Positions 7,621-31,055 of a stretch of 59,895 nt of DNA are shown here, piece by piece (position 1 is the first letter of the stretch; each line of letters begins with the position of its first letter). The stretch is from contig DVIS01000046.1 of assembly GCA_018711135.1 (NCBI GenBank), positions 1-59,895 on the forward strand, in the 5' to 3' direction. The notes beneath the pieces are model-generated. The model was not told the origin of the DNA, searched no databases, and worked only from the letters and a program-made list of their open reading frames with translations. Made by a program: the position numbers and the translations under genes. Origin of the DNA: Candidatus Onthousia faecavium (lineage in GTDB: Bacteria; Bacillota_I; Bacilli_A; RF39; UBA660).

Positions 7621-9477
7621 CTAGGAAGCAAGGGCAAGTGTGAAAGGATTTTGCAGAGTTCCATCTCCCCCGGTGATGATGACGTTTTGTTTTAGATTTA
7701 GGGATGGTTTAATGCTGATAGCAACTTGTGTGGTGTCAGTAGGGATTGAACTACCGCTGTTACGAATACGATGCACATAATTTGTATTATTATATGGTGT
7801 TAAAGTCCAATACATAGTTGTTAAATTTGTGGGAATATTTTCTCCTTTTTCACTATATCTTGTAAATTGTCCGGCCATTAACTCACCTAGTCTTAATAAT
7901 CCAACTTTTGTATAGATAATACTTGTTGTAAAAATATTGTCTGTGGTATTGGTATATTTTGCTAATTTATAGGAATCACTATCTCCTACAACACCTAAAT
8001 ACCATGTACTACTTTCTTCTATCATGGCTATATCTTCGGATTTTAAATACCCATTTTCTATATTTAAATAATCTCTATTCAAAAACGTCCCTATTGTATT
8101 GTTATTAGTAAATATTGAATTATTTCCAAAAGTTGTAGTTATAAAATTACCTGACTTTTTTAATGGCTCAGCACTTGTTATTTTTGTGCCCATCACATTT
8201 TCATGACTTACTATTCGATATAAATTATTTTCTCCTGTACCAAACCTTATGTATTCTCCACTATATCTTGTGTTTAATAATGTACCTAAGAGATTAGTGT
8301 CATTATCTCCATCTATACGATAAGGATTATTTTCTGTTCCATTACCTTTTACTATTTTAATACTTGGTTTTAGATTTATTGTCGGACGAATTCCTGCTAC
8401 CTCTGTTGGCAAATCATAACTTATACTACCATCACTAAAAACAACACATACTTGAGTATCATTATATGGCGTGATACTCCACCAACCAAGTCCATTATTT
8501 AAATAACCGGTGGTATAATCTGTACCACTATAACTCATAGTATGTTCATAAGAACTTAATAGACCTACTGGATCAGTCACCAATGTAGTTTTAGCTAATT
8601 TAGTAGTTTCTGCAGTCTCTGTCGCATTCCAGACACTATTCATCTTTATAAACTTTTCTGGCTCTCTTAAATTACCAAGAAAACCGTCAACACTAATATC
8701 ATTTAACCATTCTTCCATATAACTACCTTCAAATGCTGTATTACCACTTTCATTATAAGAAATTGCACTTATATTCCATTGTGTTACTAATTTAACACTA
8801 TTATCACTTGTGTCTATTGATACTGCTCTCCATAATTTACCACTATACCAAATATAGTTATTTGGATCTTCTCCTGTTACAAAGTATTGTTCATTATCTT
8901 CTACATTTATATTATTTTTAGTATCAAAAAGAATTGTATCAGAAACAGTATTAGTTATTTCTCTAAATAAATGTCCATTACTTGGTAAACTAAGATTATT
9001 ATAATCTAGGCCTACACTTACTCCTAAGTTTATTATTTGTTCTTCTTCTGTATGGTTTGCTAGTACTATTTGATAAGTTTGACTAGAACTTATGGTATTA
9101 ACTTTTTCTAGATTTACTCCAGTGTCTATTGGTGGTGTATTATAGTTATCTATGATTTTATAACCAGCAAAGACTCCACTTGGAAGATTATTTAAATAAT
9201 AGAAATTAAATCTAGCCATTCTCTCATTTGGATTACTTAAAGTAATCGTAAAAGTTTTTTCTTCTTTTGGTCCAACAACCAATTTATCTGTACTAACTCC
9301 ATCTATTTTCAAAACATAACTTAATGTCCCCGTAACAATGCTTATAGCATTACTTTTTTCTTTGCTAACAGTAAACATGGCATAAGAAAAGTAACTTGTT
9401 AGTAAAAGAAAAGCAATTAATATTACACATATCATATATATTTTTGATATCTTAGTATTTAATAATATTTGTTTCAT
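7621..9477 (-). CDS. Exported/surface protein: TasA/SipW-type N-terminal module plus two DUF6273-like (C-type-lectin-like) domains
   Basis: Hydrophobic N-terminus ending 'SYFSYAMF'. Two repeats 'WW/YW..TPY...G/SI(R/K)P..NL...G.GT..NP(Y/F)'. N-terminal ~170 aa closely resemble the 29095..30864 protein. Domain names are from recall. Confidence 0.65.
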   Translation of the reverse strand: MKQILLNTKISKIYMICVILIAFLLLTSYFSYAMFTVSKEKSNAISIVTGTLSYVLKIDGVSTDKLVVGPKEEKTFTITLSNPNERMARFNFYYLNNLPSGVFAGYKIIDNYNTPPIDTGVNLEKVNTISSSQTYQIVLANHTEEEQIINLGVSVGLDYNNLSLPSNGHLFREITNTVSDTILFDTKNNINVEDNEQYFVTGEDPNNYIWYSGKLWRAVSIDTSDNSVKLVTQWNISAISYNESGNTAFEGSYMEEWLNDISVDGFLGNLREPEKFIKMNSVWNATETAETTKLAKTTLVTDPVGLLSSYEHTMSYSGTDYTTGYLNNGLGWWSITPYNDTQVCVVFSDGSISYDLPTEVAGIRPTINLKPSIKIVKGNGTENNPYRIDGDNDTNLLGTLLNTRYSGEYIRFGTGENNLYRIVSHENVMGTKITSAEPLKKSGNFITTTFGNNSIFTNNNTIGTFLNRDYLNIENGYLKSEDIAMIEESSTWYLGVVGDSDSYKLAKYTNTTDNIFTTSIIYTKVGLLRLGELMAGQFTRYSEKGENIPTNLTTMYWTLTPYNNTNYVHRIRNSGSSIPTDTTQVAISIKPSLNLKQNVIITGGDGTLQNPFTLALAS

Positions 9478-9501
9478 CTTATACTCCTTTCTTAAATCAC
9501 A

Positions 9502-9535
9502 AATAAGAACAGGATAACTCTATCCTGTTCTTATT
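9502..9535 (-). terminator. Leader hairpin (putative attenuator) upstream of the 618-aa gene
   Basis: Perfect 15-bp inverted repeat AATAAGAACAGGATA (9502-9516) / TATCCTGTTCTTATT (9521-9535) with a 4-nt loop, about 25 nt before the main ATG. Confidence 0.75.
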
Positions 9536-9618
9536 CTATGATTAAAGAAAGTACTTAAGCTTCTAAAGCCCCCCCCCCAGGTAACTTGTTGTAAACGTGC
9601 GCTAGTGCTCATTTTCAT
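9520..9618 (-). CDS. Putative poly-G leader peptide, in-frame state (G10)
   Basis: MKMSTSARLQQVTWGGGFRSLSTFFNHRIRTG*; RBS AAGAAGG; C10 on + at 9569-9578; the stop TAG (9520-9522) lies at the hairpin loop. Confidence 0.65.
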   Translation of the reverse strand: MKMSTSARLQQVTWGGGFRSLSTFFNHRIRTG

Positions 9619-9683
9619 ACCTTCTTTCTATCTTTAACTTAACACCAGTTTAACATAATTTAAAGATATCAACAAGAACTTTC

Positions 9684-11211: not shown

Positions 11212-12168
11212 CTAATTTATACTTAGCAATTTCCCATGAACAACAATTCTTTCAGTATTATCTAAAGAACAGGTAGAAAGAGTTATTATTTTATCAGTAC
11301 TATATAATAATTGTTGATAATCTTTGTTACTACGGCTTTTCAAAGTGTTTAAAAATTCTAAGTACCGTTCTTCATTTAGAAAGTCAGTTTGTAAATAAGT
11401 AATTTCTGGTTCTATTTGGTAAGAAGAAAAGATTTGGTAAGTGTATAAATTTGCTGGTGTTTTTAGATATATTTTTAAGTTTGTTTCTTTACTTGTTAAG
11501 ATGTTATCTAAAGTACCAAACATGGTTTCATTTAAAATATGATGCCCATAAATAATAAGGTTATTAGTATTAGATAGATTATTAAAATCATTACGATAAT
11601 CAGCATAGATCCAACCTTTAGTGTTGTAACTTTTATCGATACTGTGATCTAAGTAATATGAGTTATCAGTAGTCTTAACAACGGGATAGTTTATATTTGT
11701 TCCTTCAACTCTAATGAAAGCGACAACATCAGGATTAGTAGCTTGTAATTCCGTAAAATTCAAATTATAAAAATCATATGATAAGTATTTACGATAATTA
11801 TCACTTATAACTACATTATTATCAGAATTAGTATTACTTTGTAAAGAACTATCATCACTTTCTGGTATTTTGTTTTCATTAATATTAATAGAGGTAAAAG
11901 GAATATCTTCTTTATAAGTAACAGATACTGGTAATATAAATCTTAAAATAGTAACAAATGTAACAACATAAAGAGTTACTATCATAATTAATTCCTGATT
12001 AGCTAATCTTTTATCTAATTTCTTTTTTAGAGTAACTCTTTTCTTAAAAAGGCCAGGAATTAATAAACTAAGGCCAAGATAAAAATAATAACATAACGAC
12101 CAAATAACTTTATTTAAACATGTTACCACTTGTTCAACAGTATTTCCTATTACTTTAAGTACCTTCAT
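11212..12168 (-). CDS. srtB: Class B sortase
   Basis: 'INYPVV...N.YYL.H', 'IIYGHH....MFG.L', catalytic 'TLSTC...ERIVVHGKL'; N-terminal TM segments. Confidence 0.9.
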   Translation of the reverse strand: MKVLKVIGNTVEQVVTCLNKVIWSLCYYFYLGLSLLIPGLFKKRVTLKKKLDKRLANQELIMIVTLYVVTFVTILRFILPVSVTYKEDIPFTSININENKIPESDDSSLQSNTNSDNNVVISDNYRKYLSYDFYNLNFTELQATNPDVVAFIRVEGTNINYPVVKTTDNSYYLDHSIDKSYNTKGWIYADYRNDFNNLSNTNNLIIYGHHILNETMFGTLDNILTSKETNLKIYLKTPANLYTYQIFSSYQIEPEITYLQTDFLNEERYLEFLNTLKSRSNKDYQQLLYSTDKIITLSTCSLDNTERIVVHGKLLSIN

Positions 12169-12225: not shown

Positions 12226-13296
12226 TTATTGTTCTAGTTCTTTAATCTCTTTAAAGTCTACTTTATTAATAGCATCAAATTTTTTACTTATCTTTTCAGT
12301 AGTAATAGAAACATTTTCAACATCTTTATTCACTGCTTGAATACTTTTAGACAGTTTATCCCATCTTTCTTTATAACGAGCAAACTCTAAACTAAGTTTA
12401 TTTAATTCTTCATGAATTACCTTAGTATATTTATCTTTTTCCATATTTTTAATAATCATTTGAATAACAGTTAAAGTTGATATCAAAGTAGTTGGTGAAG
12501 TTATAAAGACTCTTTTTTTATAAGCATATTCAATTAAATCTTGATGATAAGCATTTATTTCCGCAAATATAGCTTCTGCTGGTAAAAACATAATAGCTTC
12601 TTCACTTGTAACACCATGAATAATATATTTACTACTAATTGCATCAATATGTTTTTTAACATCTAGTTTAAAAGCTCTAGCAGCCTCTTCTCTTTCTCCT
12701 TTTGATAATTCTTTAGAAACCATTAATTGATAATGCTCTAAAGGAAATTTAGAATCAATAGCAATTGTTCCTAAAGGCTTAGGAGCAAAAAGAATAGAAT
12801 CAGCAATAGTACCATTAGGTAAAGGACATTGTAATCGATAAATGGCATCATTCTTTTCCCCAAAAACATTAGCTAAAATATGTTTTAAATTTACCTCTCC
12901 ATATATTCCTCTTGTTTTTTTATCAGTTAAAATACTTTGTAAAGAAATAATATCTGTAGAAAGACTATCTATTTTCTTTTGGGCTTCATCTATTTTTCCT
13001 AAACGTTCAATAACAGAGGTAAAAGTCTTATTTGTTTTTTCAAAGTTTTGGTTGATTCTTTCATTAACTTGTTCATTAATAGCTAATAAACGTCTTTCCA
13101 TATTTACATTTAATTTATCAAAATCTTCTCCTAAACTTTTAGTTAAGTTATCTTTAAAAGTATTTAATTCTTTAATTGTACTTATCTCTAAATTATTAAG
13201 CCGATCTGTTATTTTTTGTTCATTTATATTCTTCATTAAGGAAATTACTATTAAAATAATAATTAAAACTAGTAAACCAATTATTACATAATCCAT
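12226..13296 (-). CDS. rmuC: DNA recombination protein RmuC
   Basis: N-terminal TM, coiled coil, 'RGIYGEVNL..IL', 'IAIDSKFPL', 'AIMFLPAEAIF'. Confidence 0.92.
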   Translation of the reverse strand: MDYVIIGLLVLIIILIVISLMKNINEQKITDRLNNLEISTIKELNTFKDNLTKSLGEDFDKLNVNMERRLLAINEQVNERINQNFEKTNKTFTSVIERLGKIDEAQKKIDSLSTDIISLQSILTDKKTRGIYGEVNLKHILANVFGEKNDAIYRLQCPLPNGTIADSILFAPKPLGTIAIDSKFPLEHYQLMVSKELSKGEREEAARAFKLDVKKHIDAISSKYIIHGVTSEEAIMFLPAEAIFAEINAYHQDLIEYAYKKRVFITSPTTLISTLTVIQMIIKNMEKDKYTKVIHEELNKLSLEFARYKERWDKLSKSIQAVNKDVENVSITTEKISKKFDAINKVDFKEIKELEQ

Positions 13297-24346: not shown

Positions 24347-26176
24347 TTAAGCTTCGGCTACACTTTCAAATTGTGAATTATAAAGTTCGGCATAGAAACC
24401 ATTTTTCTCTAATAATTCATCATGTGTTCCTTGCTCTACTATATCTCCATCTTTCATAACTAAAATTAAATTAGCATTTTTAATGGTAGAAAGACGGTGA
24501 GCTATAACGAAACTAGTTCTACCCTCCATTAAATGATCCATTGCTTGTTGAATTAAAGTTTCCATTCTGGTATCTACACTACTTGTAGCTTCATCAAGAA
24601 TTAAAATCTTTGGATCTTTTAATATTACTCTAGCAATCGTTAAAAGTTGTTTTTGTCCAGCGGAAACGTTATCACTTTCTTCATTTAAAACCATATCGTA
24701 ACCATCTGGTAGAGTTCTAATAAAGTGATCAACATGACTGGCAATAGCGGCATCATATACAGCTTCATCGCTTGCATTTAAATCACCATAGCGAATATTT
24801 TCTTTAATTGTATCACTATAAAGCCAAGTATCTTGTAAAACCATACCAAATAAACTACGCAAATCATTACGTTTCATATCTCTTATGTCAACACCATCTA
24901 TTTTGATAGAACCACTATTAACATCATAAAAGCGCATTAATAGTTTAACAATTGTTGTTTTACCAGCACCAGTTGGTCCAACAATAGCAATCTTTTGTCC
25001 TTTCTTCATAATAGCGTTAAAGTCGTTAATGATAATTTTATTTTTATTATAACCAAATTTAACATCTTCAAAAGTAACAGTATTACCCATTTTTTCTAAG
25101 TCATAATTAACATCAGTTATATCAGGAATTTCTTCTTTTTCTTCTAAAAATTCAAAGACACGTTCACTTGAAGCCACCATAGATTGAATCATATTACCAA
25201 CTTGAGCAATTTGAGCTAAAGGGTTCATAAAATTTCTAATATATTGAGTAAATGATAAAATGTCTCCAACCTCAATTCTATTTTTAATAACCAAGTATCC
25301 TCCTAAAATAGAGATTAAAACATAACCAATATTACCAATAAAATTCATAATTGGATGCATCATACCTGAGAAAAATTGCGCTTTCCAAGCCGAATTATAA
25401 AGTTGTTCATTAGTCTTACTAAAATCTTCAATAGTTTTCTTTTCACCATTAAATAGTTTAACAACTGTATGTCCTGAATAAATCTCTTCAATCGTACCAT
25501 TAATTTCCCCTAGATAATTTTGTTGATCTAAGAAATATTTTTGAGAGTGTTTCATAATAAAGCTCATCATAAATAAAGCGATTGGAACAATAACTAAGGT
25601 TACTAATGTCATTAAAGGACTAATTGTTAACATCATAACAACAACACCAATTAAAGTTGTAACTGATGTTAGGATTTGCGAAATTGATTGATCTAAACTT
25701 TGAGATAAAGTATCAACATCGTTTGTAACTCTTGAAAGTATTTCTCCTGTAGTTTTACTTTCAAAATATGATAGAGGTAATTTATGCATTTTATGAGATA
25801 TCTCTTCCCTCAAATTAAAAGTTACCTTTTGATTTACTCCACTCATAATAAAAGCTTGGATATATGAGAAAAGTGAGCTAATAATGTATAGGCCTAATAA
25901 GGTTAATAAAATACCTGCTATTTTACCAAAGTTGATTCCAGCGGTTGTTCCCATTACTTTTCCCACTAGGCCATTAAAAATTTCTGTTGTAGCTTGACCT
26001 AAGATTTTAGGACCAATAATAGAGAAGATAGCACTACCTATAGCAAAGATAATAACTAAAATTAAACTAACTTTATAGGTAGATAAATACTTAATTAATT
26101 TCTTTAACGTTCCTTTAAAGTCTTTAGCTTTAGAGGTAGAGCCCATTAAAGGTCCATGATTATTTCTACTAGGCAT
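24347..26176 (-). CDS. Heterodimeric multidrug-type ABC exporter, subunit 2
   Basis: TMD plus NBD; GPTGAGKTT, 'VSAGQKQLL', 'ILDEATSSVD'. Confidence 0.92.
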   Translation of the reverse strand: MPSRNNHGPLMGSTSKAKDFKGTLKKLIKYLSTYKVSLILVIIFAIGSAIFSIIGPKILGQATTEIFNGLVGKVMGTTAGINFGKIAGILLTLLGLYIISSLFSYIQAFIMSGVNQKVTFNLREEISHKMHKLPLSYFESKTTGEILSRVTNDVDTLSQSLDQSISQILTSVTTLIGVVVMMLTISPLMTLVTLVIVPIALFMMSFIMKHSQKYFLDQQNYLGEINGTIEEIYSGHTVVKLFNGEKKTIEDFSKTNEQLYNSAWKAQFFSGMMHPIMNFIGNIGYVLISILGGYLVIKNRIEVGDILSFTQYIRNFMNPLAQIAQVGNMIQSMVASSERVFEFLEEKEEIPDITDVNYDLEKMGNTVTFEDVKFGYNKNKIIINDFNAIMKKGQKIAIVGPTGAGKTTIVKLLMRFYDVNSGSIKIDGVDIRDMKRNDLRSLFGMVLQDTWLYSDTIKENIRYGDLNASDEAVYDAAIASHVDHFIRTLPDGYDMVLNEESDNVSAGQKQLLTIARVILKDPKILILDEATSSVDTRMETLIQQAMDHLMEGRTSFVIAHRLSTIKNANLILVMKDGDIVEQGTHDELLEKNGFYAELYNSQFESVAEA

Positions 26177-28376
26177 TTTCTAACTCCTCCTTTGATAGTT
26201 GACTTTCAGCTATTTCTTTATAGACAGAACAGTTTTTTAGTAATTCTTGATGAGTACCAATTCCTACAACTTTACCTTCATCTAAAACGACAATTTGATC
26301 TGCTTTTAAAATAGTATTAATACGTTGAGCCACAATAAAGATTGTAGAATCTTTAGCATAATTATATAAAGCTTTTCTTAATTCAAAATCAGTTTTAAAA
26401 TCTAAAGCAGAAAAACTATCATCAAAAATATAGATTTCTGGATTTTTTGCAATCGCTCTAGCAATAGATAAGCGCTGTTTTTGGCCTCCTGATACGTTAG
26501 TACCACCTTGACTAATTGGACTCTTATAGCCTTCTTTTTTACTTAAGATAAACTCTTCGGCTTGAGCAATTCTTGCTGCTTCTATCATTTTCTCATCAGA
26601 CATAGATTCATCACTATATTTGATATTTGATTCAATTGTTCCAGAGAATAAGACTCCTTTTTGTGGAACATAACCAATTTTATCATGTAAATCTTTTTGC
26701 AAAACATCTTTAACATTAATACCATCTACCAATATTTCTCCATTAGTAACATCATATAATCTTGGTATTAAATTAATTAAAGTTGATTTTCCACTACCAG
26801 TTGAACCAATAAAAGCAGTAGTTGTTCCTGGTTTCGCAGTAAAAGTTACATCAGTTATAACATCTTCATCACTATCAGGATATCTAAATGAAACATTTTT
26901 AAACTCTACTAAACCTTTAATTCTCCGACCAAATTCTTTTGGTTTTTCTGGATCTTTAATAGATTCATCAGTTTCTAATATTTCCATAATTCTATTAGCA
27001 GAAACATTAGCACGTGGTAACATAATAGAGAACATTGATATCATTAAGAATGACATAATTATTTGCATAGCATATTGAATAAAAGCTAGCATATCTCCAA
27101 CTTGTAATAGTCCATTATCAATAGCATGCGCTCCTTGCCAAATAATTAAAATACAAATACCATTCATGATTAACATCATTAAAGGCATCATTAAGTTCAT
27201 AACTCTATTAACAAAAAGGTTTGTTTTCTTTAAATTAATATTAGCATTACTAAATCTTTCTTCTTCATATTTTTGATTAGAGAAAGCTCTAATAACCGGA
27301 ATACCAGTAATAATTTCTCTTGTGACTTGATTTAATTTGTCAATAAGTTTTTGAACTTTCTTAAACTTAGGCATGGTTAAAGCAAATAATGTAAAGATTA
27401 CTACTAAAACTACGATTATTCCTAACCAAATAATATAAGTCATTGATGGAGCAGTAGCAAATACTTTTCTAACAGCACCAAAGGCAATAATTGGAGCATA
27501 AATGAATAATCTTAAAGTCATTATAATCATCATTTGTACTTGTTGAATATCATTGGTACTTCTAGTAATAAGTGAAGAAATACCAAATTGTTTATATTCA
27601 GCAGTTCCAAAGTTTAAGACTTTTGTAAATTCTTTCTTACGAACACGTTTTGATAATCCAGACCCTACTCTAGCTCCTAATAAAACGGTTAGAATAGTAG
27701 CAGTAACGCTAAGTAAAGATAATCCTAACATTTTAAGACCGGTAATAATGATGTAGTTAGTTTGAATACTATCAGTATCTAATCCTACCTCAATATATTC
27801 TAACTTTATTGCACTAACAGCACTTTGTGAAATGATACTATCAGGCATAGATGAGAATTGTTCATTAATATTGGCTCTCATTTCTTCAAGCTGTTCTATA
27901 GGTAAAAAAGCAATAACATCAATAATAGCTGCATCTTGCATTTCCAAAGGCATATCTTTTTTAATTTCATTTTGAATATTCTTTGCTTCTTCTTCATCAC
28001 TTGTAAGCATGAAATCGATTAAGATTGCTTTTTCTAAATCACTATTTAACTTATTTTCATCTTTGATAACATAAACTGGTTCTTCATCTAAAATATCATA
28101 ATCATATTGAGAACTCTTTTCTGTTACTAAATTATAATTAGCAAGTATTTCTTCCTTTGTATCTTGATCAACAAAAAGTAAGATTTCATTTAATTTAGAC
28201 TCTCTAATTACTTTAGGATTAGTCTCACTAATTCCTCCTTGTTGGACACCAACATTAATAATATTAGATGTATATCCAGGAATAGTTAAGTCACAGTTAG
28301 CTTGAACTACTAAAAGTAAAATAATTAGAATAACAGAAATTATATTATCTTTTAAATATCTAAATATTTTTAACAT
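26169..28376 (-). CDS. Heterodimeric multidrug-type ABC exporter, subunit 1 (with extracellular insertion)
   Basis: TMD plus NBD; GSTGSGKST, 'VSGGQKQRL', degenerate 'FDDSFSALD'. Confidence 0.92.
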   Translation of the reverse strand: MLKIFRYLKDNIISVILIILLLVVQANCDLTIPGYTSNIINVGVQQGGISETNPKVIRESKLNEILLFVDQDTKEEILANYNLVTEKSSQYDYDILDEEPVYVIKDENKLNSDLEKAILIDFMLTSDEEEAKNIQNEIKKDMPLEMQDAAIIDVIAFLPIEQLEEMRANINEQFSSMPDSIISQSAVSAIKLEYIEVGLDTDSIQTNYIIITGLKMLGLSLLSVTATILTVLLGARVGSGLSKRVRKKEFTKVLNFGTAEYKQFGISSLITRSTNDIQQVQMMIIMTLRLFIYAPIIAFGAVRKVFATAPSMTYIIWLGIIVVLVVIFTLFALTMPKFKKVQKLIDKLNQVTREIITGIPVIRAFSNQKYEEERFSNANINLKKTNLFVNRVMNLMMPLMMLIMNGICILIIWQGAHAIDNGLLQVGDMLAFIQYAMQIIMSFLMISMFSIMLPRANVSANRIMEILETDESIKDPEKPKEFGRRIKGLVEFKNVSFRYPDSDEDVITDVTFTAKPGTTTAFIGSTGSGKSTLINLIPRLYDVTNGEILVDGINVKDVLQKDLHDKIGYVPQKGVLFSGTIESNIKYSDESMSDEKMIEAARIAQAEEFILSKKEGYKSPISQGGTNVSGGQKQRLSIARAIAKNPEIYIFDDSFSALDFKTDFELRKALYNYAKDSTIFIVAQRINTILKADQIVVLDEGKVVGIGTHQELLKNCSVYKEIAESQLSKEELENA

Positions 28377-28987
28377 TCTTTCTCCTCCTCTTTAAGACAT
28401 CCATACTTTAATATTTCTAGTTGTGCATAATAGTCATTAAGTATATCTTGATTAAGTATATCTTCTTTGAGTAATTTAAATAGTGCTATCATTAAAAGAT
28501 GCATATTAATCGCAAAAATAAGTTCAAGATGTCTTTTTGCAGTATCAGTTAATTTTTCTAAATTGATGTTAGGAATTAGTTTCTTTAAGAGTCTTTTATC
28601 TCGAAAACCAAAGGTTCTTTTTGACTCTTCCATAATAGTGATATTTTCAAGTGACTTTTTAAAGAAATTGATATTGGTATTTTTAAAAGCTTTGTAACAG
28701 TTACTGATAGTATCATAAAACATTTTAAATATATCACCATCATTTTTAATTAAAGCCTCCATCATGGTCTCTTCAAGAATCTTTCCATGTCTTTCCAATA
28801 AATAAAAGTACAAGTCTTTTTTATCTTCAAAATACATATAAAAGCTTCCTCTAGAAATACCAGCTTCCTTAATAATTCTATTAATTGAAGCTTCATTAAA
28901 GTCATGACTAGAAAACTCATTAAAACTAGCATTAAGTAGTTTATCTTTCTTTTCTTTACTAAGTCTTAAAAAGGTATCACTAGGCAT
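28370..28987 (-). CDS. TetR/AcrR-family transcriptional regulator
   Basis: 'LLNASFNEFS...ASINRIIKEAGISRGSFYMYFEDKKDLY'. Confidence 0.93.
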   Translation of the reverse strand: MPSDTFLRLSKEKKDKLLNASFNEFSSHDFNEASINRIIKEAGISRGSFYMYFEDKKDLYFYLLERHGKILEETMMEALIKNDGDIFKMFYDTISNCYKAFKNTNINFFKKSLENITIMEESKRTFGFRDKRLLKKLIPNINLEKLTDTAKRHLELIFAINMHLLMIALFKLLKEDILNQDILNDYYAQLEILKYGCLKEEEKEC

Positions 28988-29094: not shown

Positions 29095-30864
29095 CTACTG
29101 TAAATTAACTAAAGTAACCCTAAATGTTAAACCATAAGCTGCTATTCCATTATCATCATAATTATCAAAATAAAATATTCCTCCCTGTATAGAACTAATA
29201 AATGCTCCTCCCCGTCCTTGCCAAGCATTATTTGCATCGACTAGTTCTTTTATATCATTATACCAACCCCAATTCTCTCCTAAACCATGAGAAATACAAG
29301 CATTACCACTGCATGAGGTTAGAACATCATCACTTGTATATTTATCATAATATTTAGATTCAGGCATTGTTTCAAAACCAGAGTTTTCCACTAAGCCATT
29401 ATAATTTGCCATTACAAGTTCAAAAGCTCCACCACTCATATCATATACTCCATATATCGTTCCTGTGGTACTTGCTCCTGTTCCATTAATATCTACATCA
29501 TAAGTATATTGACATCCATAATCAGCAGAAGTTCCCCCACTAGGTGCCCCCAAACTACATCCTGTTATTATCTCATCCGATTTATTTTGATACACCTCTT
29601 TATTAGCTCCAGTAAAATTAACATTACCTAACTTTCCATACTTAGATTGAGATAGGTATGTAATAATAGCCCATTCACTATTTTTTATCATATGCGTATC
29701 TACATCAGTACTAAAACCATACCGATTACCAGGATTATTCATTTTTAAACTAACTTGAAACATAGTAGCAACATTAATATTATCCCAACTAGATACATTA
29801 GGTTTAATCATAACATCTAAATTCATAGAGTCAATACCACTTTCTAAAGCTTCAATATTACTACTTGAAGATTCAAACTTACCAACCCAAATTCCTGATA
29901 ACTCTTTTCCATCAAAGGTAAAAGCATCTGGAGTATACCAATCATCAGCACCTATTCCTTCACTTACAAGATATTTGGCTGTTCCTTTATCTTTAACATT
30001 TGGTTCTATAAACTTTATATCTATTTCTCCTGGTAATTCTTGAGTTGGCATTGTTGTTAAAAAATTCCCTTGCTTTCCATAGTAATTAATACCATCTTCA
30101 CTTCCAATACTGTAACTATATCTTGGTATCCATACCCACATAGTTTCAATATCATCCATCGAAATTACAGTGCCAATATCTGCTTCTAAATATGTATCTC
30201 TAGTTGAACTGCTTACTGTTACTGCATTAGCCCATTCGCCTTTATCATAGTTATACCAGTTTGCCTCATCAGTCTTTACCCAATTATTATTCTCATAAAT
30301 AACAGGAATCATATTATTATCTAATTCTGGAGTATTAACTGTAAAAATCTCTTCAAATAAATTTCCGTTACTTGGTAAAGCTAAATCATTATAGTCTAAT
30401 CCGACCTCAACTCCTAAATTGATAACAATTTGCTCATTATTATTATTAATGACCTTTAATTGATAAATTTGACTTGCACCAATTCCTTCTTTTTCAAGAT
30501 TTACTCCAGTTTCTTCTGGAGGAATATTAAAGTCTTTAATCTTTAAATACCCCATTTCAATATTTTCAAATATTGGAGTTATATAATAGAAATTAAATCT
30601 TGCTAAACGATTATTAGGATTACTTAAAGTAATCGTAAAAGTTTTTTCTTCATTTGGACCAACAACTAGTTCATCAGTACTAACTCCATCTACTTTCAAA
30701 TCATAACTTAATGTCCCTGTCACAATACTTATCGCATTATTCTTTTCTTTAGTTACAGTAAACATCGCATAAGAAAAGTAACTTGTTAATAGTAATAAGG
30801 TTATTAAAATTACACTTATTATATATATTTTTGATACTTTAGTATTTAATAATAGTCTTTTCAT
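29095..30864 (-). CDS. Exported/surface protein: shared TasA/SipW-type N-terminal module plus FGE-sulfatase-like (C-type lectin fold) C-terminal region
   Basis: N-terminus paralogous to 7621..9477. 'MWVWIPRY', 'GIWVGKFE', 'HM.KNSEW....YL.QS.YG', 'GT.YGVYDMSGG..E.V', 'RGG...G.F...G...FRV'. Confidence 0.65.
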   Translation of the reverse strand: MKRLLLNTKVSKIYIISVILITLLLLTSYFSYAMFTVTKEKNNAISIVTGTLSYDLKVDGVSTDELVVGPNEEKTFTITLSNPNNRLARFNFYYITPIFENIEMGYLKIKDFNIPPEETGVNLEKEGIGASQIYQLKVINNNNEQIVINLGVEVGLDYNDLALPSNGNLFEEIFTVNTPELDNNMIPVIYENNNWVKTDEANWYNYDKGEWANAVTVSSSTRDTYLEADIGTVISMDDIETMWVWIPRYSYSIGSEDGINYYGKQGNFLTTMPTQELPGEIDIKFIEPNVKDKGTAKYLVSEGIGADDWYTPDAFTFDGKELSGIWVGKFESSSSNIEALESGIDSMNLDVMIKPNVSSWDNINVATMFQVSLKMNNPGNRYGFSTDVDTHMIKNSEWAIITYLSQSKYGKLGNVNFTGANKEVYQNKSDEIITGCSLGAPSGGTSADYGCQYTYDVDINGTGASTTGTIYGVYDMSGGAFELVMANYNGLVENSGFETMPESKYYDKYTSDDVLTSCSGNACISHGLGENWGWYNDIKELVDANNAWQGRGGAFISSIQGGIFYFDNYDDNGIAAYGLTFRVTLVNLQ

Positions 30865-30950: not shown

Positions 30951-31055
30951 CTAAAGTACCCCCCCCCAGGTAACTTCTTGTAAACGGGTGTTAGTATAAA
31001 TTTGGTACACCAATTCTTTAGGATATACCATCATCTTTATTCCCTTCATCTTCAT
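30951..31055 (-). CDS. Putative poly-G leader peptide, out-of-frame state (G9)
   Basis: MKMKGIKMMVYPKELVYQIYTNTRLQEVTWGGVL*; C9 on + at 30959-30967. With G8 or G11 it would read ...YFRSLSTFFNRGIRTG* and stop at 30908-30910 inside the hairpin. Confidence 0.6.
   Translation of the reverse strand: MKMKGIKMMVYPKELVYQIYTNTRLQEVTWGGVL

Follow-up and report, generated by a model that had tools for sequence, protein, structure and literature searches.

A homopolymeric G tract in a leader open reading frame: a candidate slipped-strand switch ahead of a variable protein family in Candidatus Onthousia

Simple sequence repeat (SSR) contingency loci comprise poly-G/C tracts in genes of Neisseria, Haemophilus and Campylobacter and poly-A or TA repeats in the vlp and vmm promoters of Mycoplasma. 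Ribosome-mediated leader attenuation is represented by Escherichia coli pyrBI, by the erm and cat leaders and by the Bacillus bmrCD type. G-runs in leaders are also known: in Bacillus subtilis pyrG, non-templated, reiterative addition of G at the 5′ end of the transcript creates a run that pairs with the terminator strand, and the poly-G of the 5′ untranslated region (UTR) of Moraxella catarrhalis uspA1 acts by a mechanism that is not frame-based. The cwpV gene of Clostridioides difficile shows post-initiation phase variation, with a leader RNA terminator ahead of a cell-wall protein gene (PMC5914908), and in the 5′ UTR of Helicobacter pylori tlpB a variable G-repeat is subject to post-transcriptional control by the small RNA (sRNA) RepG (PMC8322730). 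Here, we describe a leader cassette present in a 59,895-nucleotide (nt) stretch of Candidatus Onthousia faecavium DNA (contig DVIS01000046.1; the whole stretch is called the window), in which a G tract lies inside a short upstream open reading frame (uORF) that runs towards a hairpin ahead of a long protein-coding gene. Judging from the comparison of related leaders, we regard a slipped-strand phase-variation switch built into a leader-peptide attenuator as the best explanation of this arrangement, and as a reasonably probable one.

Copy 1 of the cassette precedes a gene for a protein of 618 amino acids (aa). Coordinates are those of the window and the cassette is read on the minus strand, so positions descend from 5′ to 3′:

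9675–9647, minus strand: promoter-like site read from the sequence, with −35 TTGTTG (9675–9670), N17 and a TG-extended −10, TGtTAAACT (9655–9647)
9628–9620, minus strand: Shine–Dalgarno (SD) sequence of the uORF, GAAAGAAGG, identified from the sequence and the SD pattern of relatives
9618–9520, minus strand: leader ORF (uORF), MKMSTSARLQQVTWGGGFRSLSTFFNHRIRTG followed by a stop, 32 codons long from the ATG at 9618, or 30 from that at 9612
9596–9579, minus strand: conserved block GTTTACAA-nnn-GTTACCT, directly 5′ of the tract and coding for L-Q-x-V-T
9578–9569, minus strand: homopolymeric G10 tract, proposed to switch by strand slippage; lengths of G7, G10 or G13 give the read-through frame
9568–9553, minus strand: 16-nt spacer CTTTAGAAGCTTAAGT, open in the read-through frame, with off-frame stops TAG (9565–9563) and TAA (9557–9555)
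9552–9540, minus strand: anti-SD ACTTTCTTTAATC, a pyrimidine element reading T-F-F-N in the read-through frame
9535–9502, minus strand: perfect hairpin of 15 base pairs (bp) with a 4-nt loop, the core of an approximately 30-bp helix spanning 9551–9487
9493–9484, minus strand: SD region of the main gene, AAGAAAGGAG, sequestered by the anti-SD in the predicted fold
9477–7621, minus strand: putatively controlled gene, 618 aa, with an N-terminal transmembrane (TM) helix or signal, a conserved beta-sandwich ending near residue 175 and, C-terminally, a variable part that includes DUF6273

The codons before the tract read CGT TTA CAA CAA GTT ACC T, directly followed by the G10, about 70 nt downstream of the −10 element and within the uORF. 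The first uORF ATG (9618) stands 1 nt from the SD and the second (9612) 7 nt from GAAGG; since the latter spacing is canonical and is that seen in relatives, the second ATG is the likelier start, and because both share a frame the choice changes nothing. With G10 the uORF continues across the anti-SD to a TAG (9522–9520) made of the last two bases of the hairpin 5′ arm and the first base of the loop, i.e., at the arm/loop junction. With G9, on the other hand, it would stop at the TAA 9557–9555, and with G11 at the TAG 9565–9563. The arms of the hairpin are AATAAGAACAGGATA (9535–9521) and TATCCTGTTCTTATT (9516–9502), its loop is gagt (9520–9517), and 24 nt separate it from the main ATG (9477). 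The minimum-free-energy (MFE) fold of this leader is one long helix (−46.8 kcal/mol, z = −5.4), in which CTTTCTT (9551–9545) is paired with AAGAAAG (9493–9487). At the 27% guanine-plus-cytosine (GC) content of the window, 0.09 G runs of at least 8 are expected and two are observed, a number reached by none of 100 shuffles; both tracts occupy the same position of a homologous leader.

The sequence features that the initial annotation had read in this leader are all present at these coordinates, namely a G10 tract within a 32-codon leader ORF with its own ribosome-binding site (30 codons if the ATG at 9612 is used), a perfect 15-bp hairpin about 25 nt before the main ATG, a leader stop at its loop with G10, stops ahead of it with G9 and G11, and a pairing of CTTTCTT with the ribosome-binding site of the main gene. 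The SigA-like promoter it proposed, TTGTTG-N17-TAAACT, holds in part: the site is present and fits the TG-extended −10 layout conserved in relatives, but it matches at 8/12 positions and falls under the threshold of the promoter scanner.

The same cassette precedes about 59 paralogues and orthologues of the 618-aa gene from about 20 metagenome-assembled genomes (MAGs), approximately 100–130 nt upstream of the main ATG; the initial annotation had suggested that relatives be searched for it. Each of the 65 cassettes in the DNA retrieved stands ahead of a family gene, a count biased by the fact that loci were fetched by family homology. The order of parts is shared: an SD (mostly AAGAAGGT), 6–8 nt, an ATG, a short ORF, GTTTACAA-nnn-GTTAC(C/T)T and G(5–13), followed by a 15–47-nt variable spacer, (T)ACTTTCTTTCAT, a hairpin (typically AAAAGAATAGA...TCTATTCTTTT) with T5–T7, AATGAAAGGAGTAAG and the ATG. 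At this fixed leader position the tract ranges from G5 to G13, with G9 at 31/59 loci, G10 at 13–15 and the others at G6–G8, G11 and G13; it is at least G7 in most copies, in short- and long-read assemblies alike. A GAAGG-type SD 6–8 nt before a start codon in the tract frame (L-Q-x-V-T-W-G-G) was found in 55/59 cassettes. The 5′ parts of the uORFs belong to at least four unrelated types of 15–55 codons, homology between copies setting in about 25 nt 5′ of the tract. Relatives show the promoter layout TTGnnn-N17-TGnTAAnAT ahead of the uORF SD, and some of their uORFs directly follow the stop codon of the preceding gene. In most of them the hairpin carries a clean T5–T7 run and is called as a terminator. 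Viral contigs held no match to the cassette.

Two variants of this layout deserve mention. A long uORF type, M(T/A)NL(I/V)YQGKI(I/N)RQFWGKLIRQST, occurs at seven loci of several MAGs (L015, L027, L028, L037, L071, L005 and L006) and holds an internal DNA repeat (GGTAAAATAATTCGTCAAT...), being in the tract frame every time. At L059 and L065 the cassette lies about 200 nt upstream of the ATG, with an extra segment of about 110 nt between terminator and gene SD; this segment has its own promoter-like TTGATA...TGCTAATAT, which may bypass the switch, and both loci are in the read-through frame.

Behind the tract the three reading frames are asymmetric. Across 39 distinct post-tract spacers (15–47 nt, with every residue mod 3 represented), no stop occurs in the 362 codons of the frame that runs on into ACT-TTC-TTT, whereas the other two have stops at 110/333 and 54/326 codons (164/659 combined), and a ribosome in either of them would meet a stop 2–29 nt after the tract. 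Composition-preserving shuffles give each spacer a 19–62% chance of an open frame, and the joint probability is about 10^−6.6 for 14 representative spacer classes, which are not fully independent. At 59/59 loci the open frame stops within the hairpin 5′ arm, 24–30 nt past the first base of the anti-SD. The read-through frame itself is occupied at 6/59 loci (window copy 1, L019, L032, L039, L059 and L065) and never by more than one copy per MAG; this rarity fits a family with most copies silent in most cells.

We propose that transcription would begin upstream of a uORF that has its own strong SD and contains the G tract, and that past the tract one frame would stay open through the anti-SD ACUUUCUUU into the hairpin 5′ arm, the other two being stop-rich. 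In the open frame, translating ribosomes would occupy the anti-SD together with the 5′ arm and keep the terminator-like, SD-sequestering helix from forming, allowing both transcription and translation of the gene (ON). With tracts of either other length class, ribosomes would leave early, the helix would form, and transcription would end or the SD would be buried (OFF). One G gained or lost at replication could toggle each paralogue independently, with the structural gene unchanged and with no recombinase. The anatomy, its conservation, the frame statistics and the length differences between orthologous loci are seen directly and give the model strong comparative support; ribosome control of the hairpin, the ON/OFF polarity and frequent heritable switching are what we infer from these patterns. 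The uORF stop lies about 18–25 nt before the end of the U-run, and such a distance is, as an estimate rather than a computed value, about that at which a ribosome would be expected to trail an RNA polymerase closely coupled to it. The comparative data on frames, SD, stops, helices and tract lengths fit the claim of the initial annotation that the leader ORF reaches the hairpin or falls short of it according to tract length mod 3, and its forecast that copy 1 would be ON agrees with a G10 in the read-through frame; on the same model copy 2 (G9) is predicted OFF.

Taken more broadly, the balance tips slightly towards an undescribed class of contingency switch, in which a homopolymer in a translated leader ORF sets the frame of the ribosome and the frame decides whether a terminator and SD-sequestering helix forms (one frame ON, two OFF), copied before most members of a large variable surface-protein family whose expression would be independent and largely mutually exclusive. 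A full-text literature search, with subscription journals outside its coverage, returned no published description of a repeat in a leader ORF gating an attenuator, in agreement with the initial annotation, which knew of no such architecture; the Onthousia literature found consists of MAG catalogues.

The second copy in the window came from the recurrence of a 29-mer 3′ of the copy-1 tract, which is found once more, upstream of a 589-aa ORF (29095–30864). Only two cassette copies were found in the window. The parts of copy 2 are as follows:

31055–30951, minus strand: uORF, MKMKGIKMMVYPKELVYQIYTNTRLQEVTWGGVL followed by a stop, with its own SD and an ATG (31055) in the tract frame
30967–30959, minus strand: G9 tract
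30940–30928, minus strand: anti-SD, ACTTTCTTTAATC
30920–30889, minus strand: intrinsic-terminator-like hairpin of 11 pairs, then TTTTTT, called as a terminator by the scanner
30878–30871, minus strand: main-gene SD, GAAAGGAG
30864–29095, minus strand: putatively controlled gene, 589 aa, a paralogue of the 618-aa gene

Here the G9 is followed by TA and the uORF ends at a TAG (30953–30951) ahead of the anti-SD; the read-through frame would need G8 or G11. The 618-aa and 589-aa proteins are 69% identical over their first 174 aa, the C-terminal remainders being unrelated. DNA homology between the two copies begins about 25 nt before the tract and extends via the leader into the coding sequence, while promoter, SD and uORF start are not homologous. 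Directly downstream of copy 2, on the same strand, are genes for a TetR regulator and two ABC exporters (24347–28987, minus strand).

Tract length varies between orthologous loci of the family. L030 carries G9 and L039 G11, with 6 substitutions in 1,500 nt of flank; L085, L086, L088 and L051 carry G10 and L087 G9, with identical flanks, some of these being probably long-read assemblies; and the syntenic pairs L021/L078 and L024/L051 are each G9 against G10. In one metagenome, two window-type paralogues are present, one G8 (read-through frame) and one G9 (early stop). At six loci from independent samples (L094–L099) the tract has decayed to GGGAGGGG, identical in all six and in the read-through frame. 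Such invariance is as expected if only pure runs slip, and the sequence looks like a locked-ON allele. At these loci the tract lies about 150 nt upstream of the gene at 401, and the downstream family gene is only 121 aa long. Assemblies often break in the leader: L083 has an N-gap there, contigs end there in L084, L056 and L076, and L084 starts at ACAACAAGTTACC, the very point of the scaffold gap in L083. These breaks fit repeated and/or heterogeneous sequence.

The same frame gate could also be operated without any change in DNA, by RNA polymerase slippage or ribosomal frameshifting on the G9–G10 run with its GGG codons and SD-like sequence, which would set the frame non-heritably. A set fraction of ribosomes would then enter the open frame and give low, tunable expression from G9 or G10, DNA length serving to shift that fraction. 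We hold this to be unlikely. It is supported because homopolymers of 9 or more are known slippage sites of both RNA polymerase and the ribosome; frame asymmetry and uORF conservation fit it equally well, and so does the dominance of G9 and G10 with rare read-through lengths. The length differences between near-identical orthologous loci, on the other hand, speak for switching in DNA, as do interrupted tracts in both frames, which are apparently locked states. Sequence alone cannot separate the two.

The GTTTACAA-nnn-GTTAC(C/T)T motif directly before the tract is nearly invariant at the nucleotide level at all cassette loci (in the window, 9579–9596 and 30968–30985, minus strand); the codon in its middle is unconstrained, and the one preceding L changes non-synonymously (TGT, CGT or AGT). 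Possible roles are the binding of a protein or RNA and a nascent-peptide signal. The uORF could instead encode a conventional sensory leader peptide, with stalling at the W-G-G-G codons or arrest at L-Q-x-V-T-W, in which the early-stop G9 form would be the working state, the input would be a metabolite, tRNA charging or an antibiotic, and the G run would be merely the codons of the peptide. We find this quite improbable. The L-Q-x-V-T-W-G-G block is indeed the most conserved part of the leader and early-stop G9 is the commonest state; against this, a glycine-coding G9–G10 is very unlikely at 27% GC unless selected as a homopolymer, the conservation looks like one of nucleotides, the computed folds offer no alternative antiterminator pairing with the tract region, and a third frame open in 39/39 spacers, beside stop-rich others, is left unaccounted for.

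Leader structure is conserved along with the frames. Over 31 distinct leaders, the terminator helix and the enclosing anti-SD:SD helix are 91% paired, against 53–70% when partners are slid by 1–3 columns, and the anti-SD:SD helix by itself (alignment columns 6–18 and 71–83) is 90.9% paired. Four helix pairs have changed on both sides, including compensatory C-G to U-A changes in window-type leaders, and three leaders fold into the long anti-SD:SD helix with z = −5.4, −4.2 and −3.1. We observed that the anti-SD ACUUUCUUUC (9552–9540) is also complementary to the SD of the uORF itself, GAAAGAAGGU (9620–9629, minus strand; also at L021); in folds of partial transcripts the anti-SD pairs with the uORF SD first, and with the main SD only in the full leader. 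A hairpin in the spacer, tried as a general conserved feature, occurs only in some spacer classes (the TTAAATTACCA...TGGTAGTTTAA type) and was rejected as such.

The tract might instead be a frame-independent RNA or DNA element exerting graded rather than mod-3 control, its length tuning its pairing with the anti-SD, with a trans-acting C/U-rich sRNA or with a protein, a possibility we rate as improbable as the sensory peptide. The G-repeat in the 5′ leader of H. pylori tlpB works in this way through RepG (PMC8322730), the tract can pair with CUUUCUUU, and the block next to it, GTTTACAA-nnn-GTTACC, resembles a nucleic-acid site. The tract:anti-SD duplex is weak, however (−5.4 to −7.3 kcal/mol), and it is absent from every MFE and co-transcriptional fold, for which reason a pyrG-like antiterminator or anti-anti-SD pairing was rejected; the conserved SD and ATG and the one-open/two-closed pattern are neither needed nor explained by a frame-independent element. 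That the cassette is a non-functional relic, i.e., an old coding-region end plus terminator spread by duplication or gene conversion, its lengths being assembly noise, is very improbable: paralogues do share the leader by descent, contigs often break in it and homopolymers are error-prone in some technologies, but the frame is open across many indel-bearing spacer variants, SD and ATG are kept in unrelated upstream contexts, and tracts of at least G7 recur in most copies from short- and long-read assemblies. Neither the sensory peptide, nor the frame-independent element, nor the relic explains the one-open/two-closed pattern together with the conserved SD and ATG.

Other designs of switch were considered and rejected. 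A promoter-spacer switch of the Mycoplasma vlp or the Neisseria porA/opc type is contradicted by the position of the promoter upstream of the uORF SD, so the tract is transcribed and is no promoter spacer; no usable hexamers flank it, and the TTTACA in the conserved block, taken as a −35, has no −10 partner at a usable distance. A frameshift switch within the structural gene does not apply either, since the tract ends 91 nt before the copy-1 main ATG, outside the coding sequence, and all three frames stop before that ATG. For a DNA-inversion switch of the cwpV or fim type, the only inverted repeat is the hairpin itself and there is no invertase. A gene about 2.7 kb upstream of the cassette (12226–13296, minus strand) has a weak RmuC-like match, and it lends inversion no support because RmuC is not a site-specific invertase. 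As for known RNA families, nothing credible was found in Rfam 15, with no match to the whole window at gathering score and only sub-threshold chance matches to the leader at E up to 10.

Several points weigh against the slipped-strand attenuator switch that we favour. The main reason for caution is the rarity of read-through lengths (6/59) and the dominance of G9 (31/59), because the early-stop form could be the working state. The roughly 59 cassettes are paralogous or orthologous and are not independent samples, and covariation is limited by the close similarity of the leaders. Nor does a frame switch account for the invariant GTTTACAA-nnn-GTTACC block. The contigs of one polymorphic pair are, by their names, probably long-read assemblies, in which homopolymers are error-prone. 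Tract variability across strains, as expected by the initial annotation, is seen in the G number of related orthologous loci, but the copy-1 locus has G10 in 3/3 samples (the window and two others), and variability is therefore supported for the family and not for the copy-1 locus. Likewise, the terminator hairpin it described is called as such in copy 2 and in most relatives, but that of copy 1 is followed by AUUUGUGAUUU, a weak U-tail and no clean U-run, and is not called; in copy 1, SD sequestration and unmasking is therefore better supported than termination. Tight coupling of transcription and translation is reported to be weak in Bacillus subtilis, which would also favour the translational, SD-unmasking arm over antitermination.

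The genes behind the cassette form a multigene family. Its proteins have a conserved N-terminal region, comprising an anchor and a beta-sandwich, but differ in their C-terminal parts, and they look like surface-exposed or secreted proteins of variable make-up. Querying with the 174 conserved residues of the N-terminus gave 123 proteins, nearly all unnamed and from ENA metagenomes, and a scan of species-representative genomes gave 80 loci, all in MAGs labelled Candidatus Onthousia, uncultured Bacilli or "Tenericutes", with up to 7 family loci per MAG among those kept. Where sample or species names can be interpreted, they indicate animal guts. DUF6273 is the sole Pfam match of the copy-1 protein; NCBIfam held nothing for it and the PDB no meaningful sequence match. 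The AlphaFold model of the N-terminal domain shows a TM helix and a beta-sandwich (predicted local distance difference test, pLDDT, 83), with no significant Foldseek match.

Between the syntenic partners L021 and L078, and likewise between L024 and L051, about 99% of upstream flanking positions agree and the leaders are almost the same, but the coding sequence of the surface protein differs by 10–25%; diversification there is confined to the gene. In two other metagenomes (L083 and L084) the copy-1 locus retains its G10 and lacks 83 nt of coding sequence (window 8887–8969, minus strand) where the conserved N-terminal domain meets the variable part, which splits the gene into ORFs of 178 aa and 425 aa; either a true inactivating deletion or a collapse of the assembly could account for this. 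Family members without the cassette also exist (L013, L038, L045, L053 and L062; L003, L004, L040, L054, L055, L057, L064, L079, L089–L092 and L101–L104). One such group has a plain TTG...TATAAT promoter-like site, and a distinct "MKYKIK" subfamily stands directly after a tRNA-synthetase gene and its terminator. These members may be the constitutive part of the family. Further contigs sought for same-locus comparison were mostly de-duplicated or carried subfamily members of this cassette-less kind. About 1.7 kb upstream of copy 1 lies a gene for a class B sortase (11212–12168, minus strand); with murC nearby as well, the organism probably has a peptidoglycan wall.

If the mechanism proposed here is true, slipped-strand phase variation and leader-peptide attenuation would be joined in one compact device, repeat-driven switching could act through a decoy ORF, and phase-variable genes could be missed by screens limited to promoter and coding-region repeats. 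It would also point to antigenic or adhesive variation in little-known uncultured Bacilli of animal guts, Candidatus Onthousia and its relatives. The module, of about 150 nt, could then serve as a stochastic genetic toggle. Its predictions are clear: mod-3 periodicity and dependence on the uORF start codon.

Set beside the described systems, the cassette shares features with each of them. As in tlpB, a variable G-repeat lies in an mRNA leader and is proposed to control the downstream gene; RepG control, however, is graded, works by sRNA pairing and involves no uORF, whereas mod-3 gating by the ribosome is what the conserved uORF and the frame pattern of the cassette suggest. Like pyrG and uspA1, the cassette has a leader poly-G upstream of a terminator or gene that would influence read-through or mRNA level, but the tract is templated, internal and within an ORF, and it is predicted to pair only weakly with the pyrimidine element. 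With cwpV it would share a leader terminator whose formation decides expression after initiation, proposed here from sequence; in cwpV a recombinase inverts DNA and the RNA alone decides, whereas here a homopolymer would set the uORF frame, with the ribosome as the proposed effector. Hypermutable homopolymer, mod-3 or length logic, a surface-protein multigene family and independent switching are all traits of SSR contingency loci (background in PMC3711429). In those, the repeat lies in the structural ORF or between −35 and −10, while here it sits in a separate leader ORF downstream of the promoter, and the structural protein, unlike that of in-ORF loci, is never frameshifted. Finally, as in pyrBI, erm, cat and bmrCD, a promoter-like site is followed by a short leader and by a terminator-like or SD-sequestering hairpin that a ribosome could disrupt: a short ORF with its own SD, presumably translated, lies between this site and the gene and overlaps the hairpin, and the conserved anti-SD is of the erm type. 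Those leaders sense physiology, be it the level of uridine triphosphate (UTP) or ribosomes stalled by antibiotics; in the cassette the proposed input is a heritable change of frame, with stop-rich off-frames in the place of the stall site.

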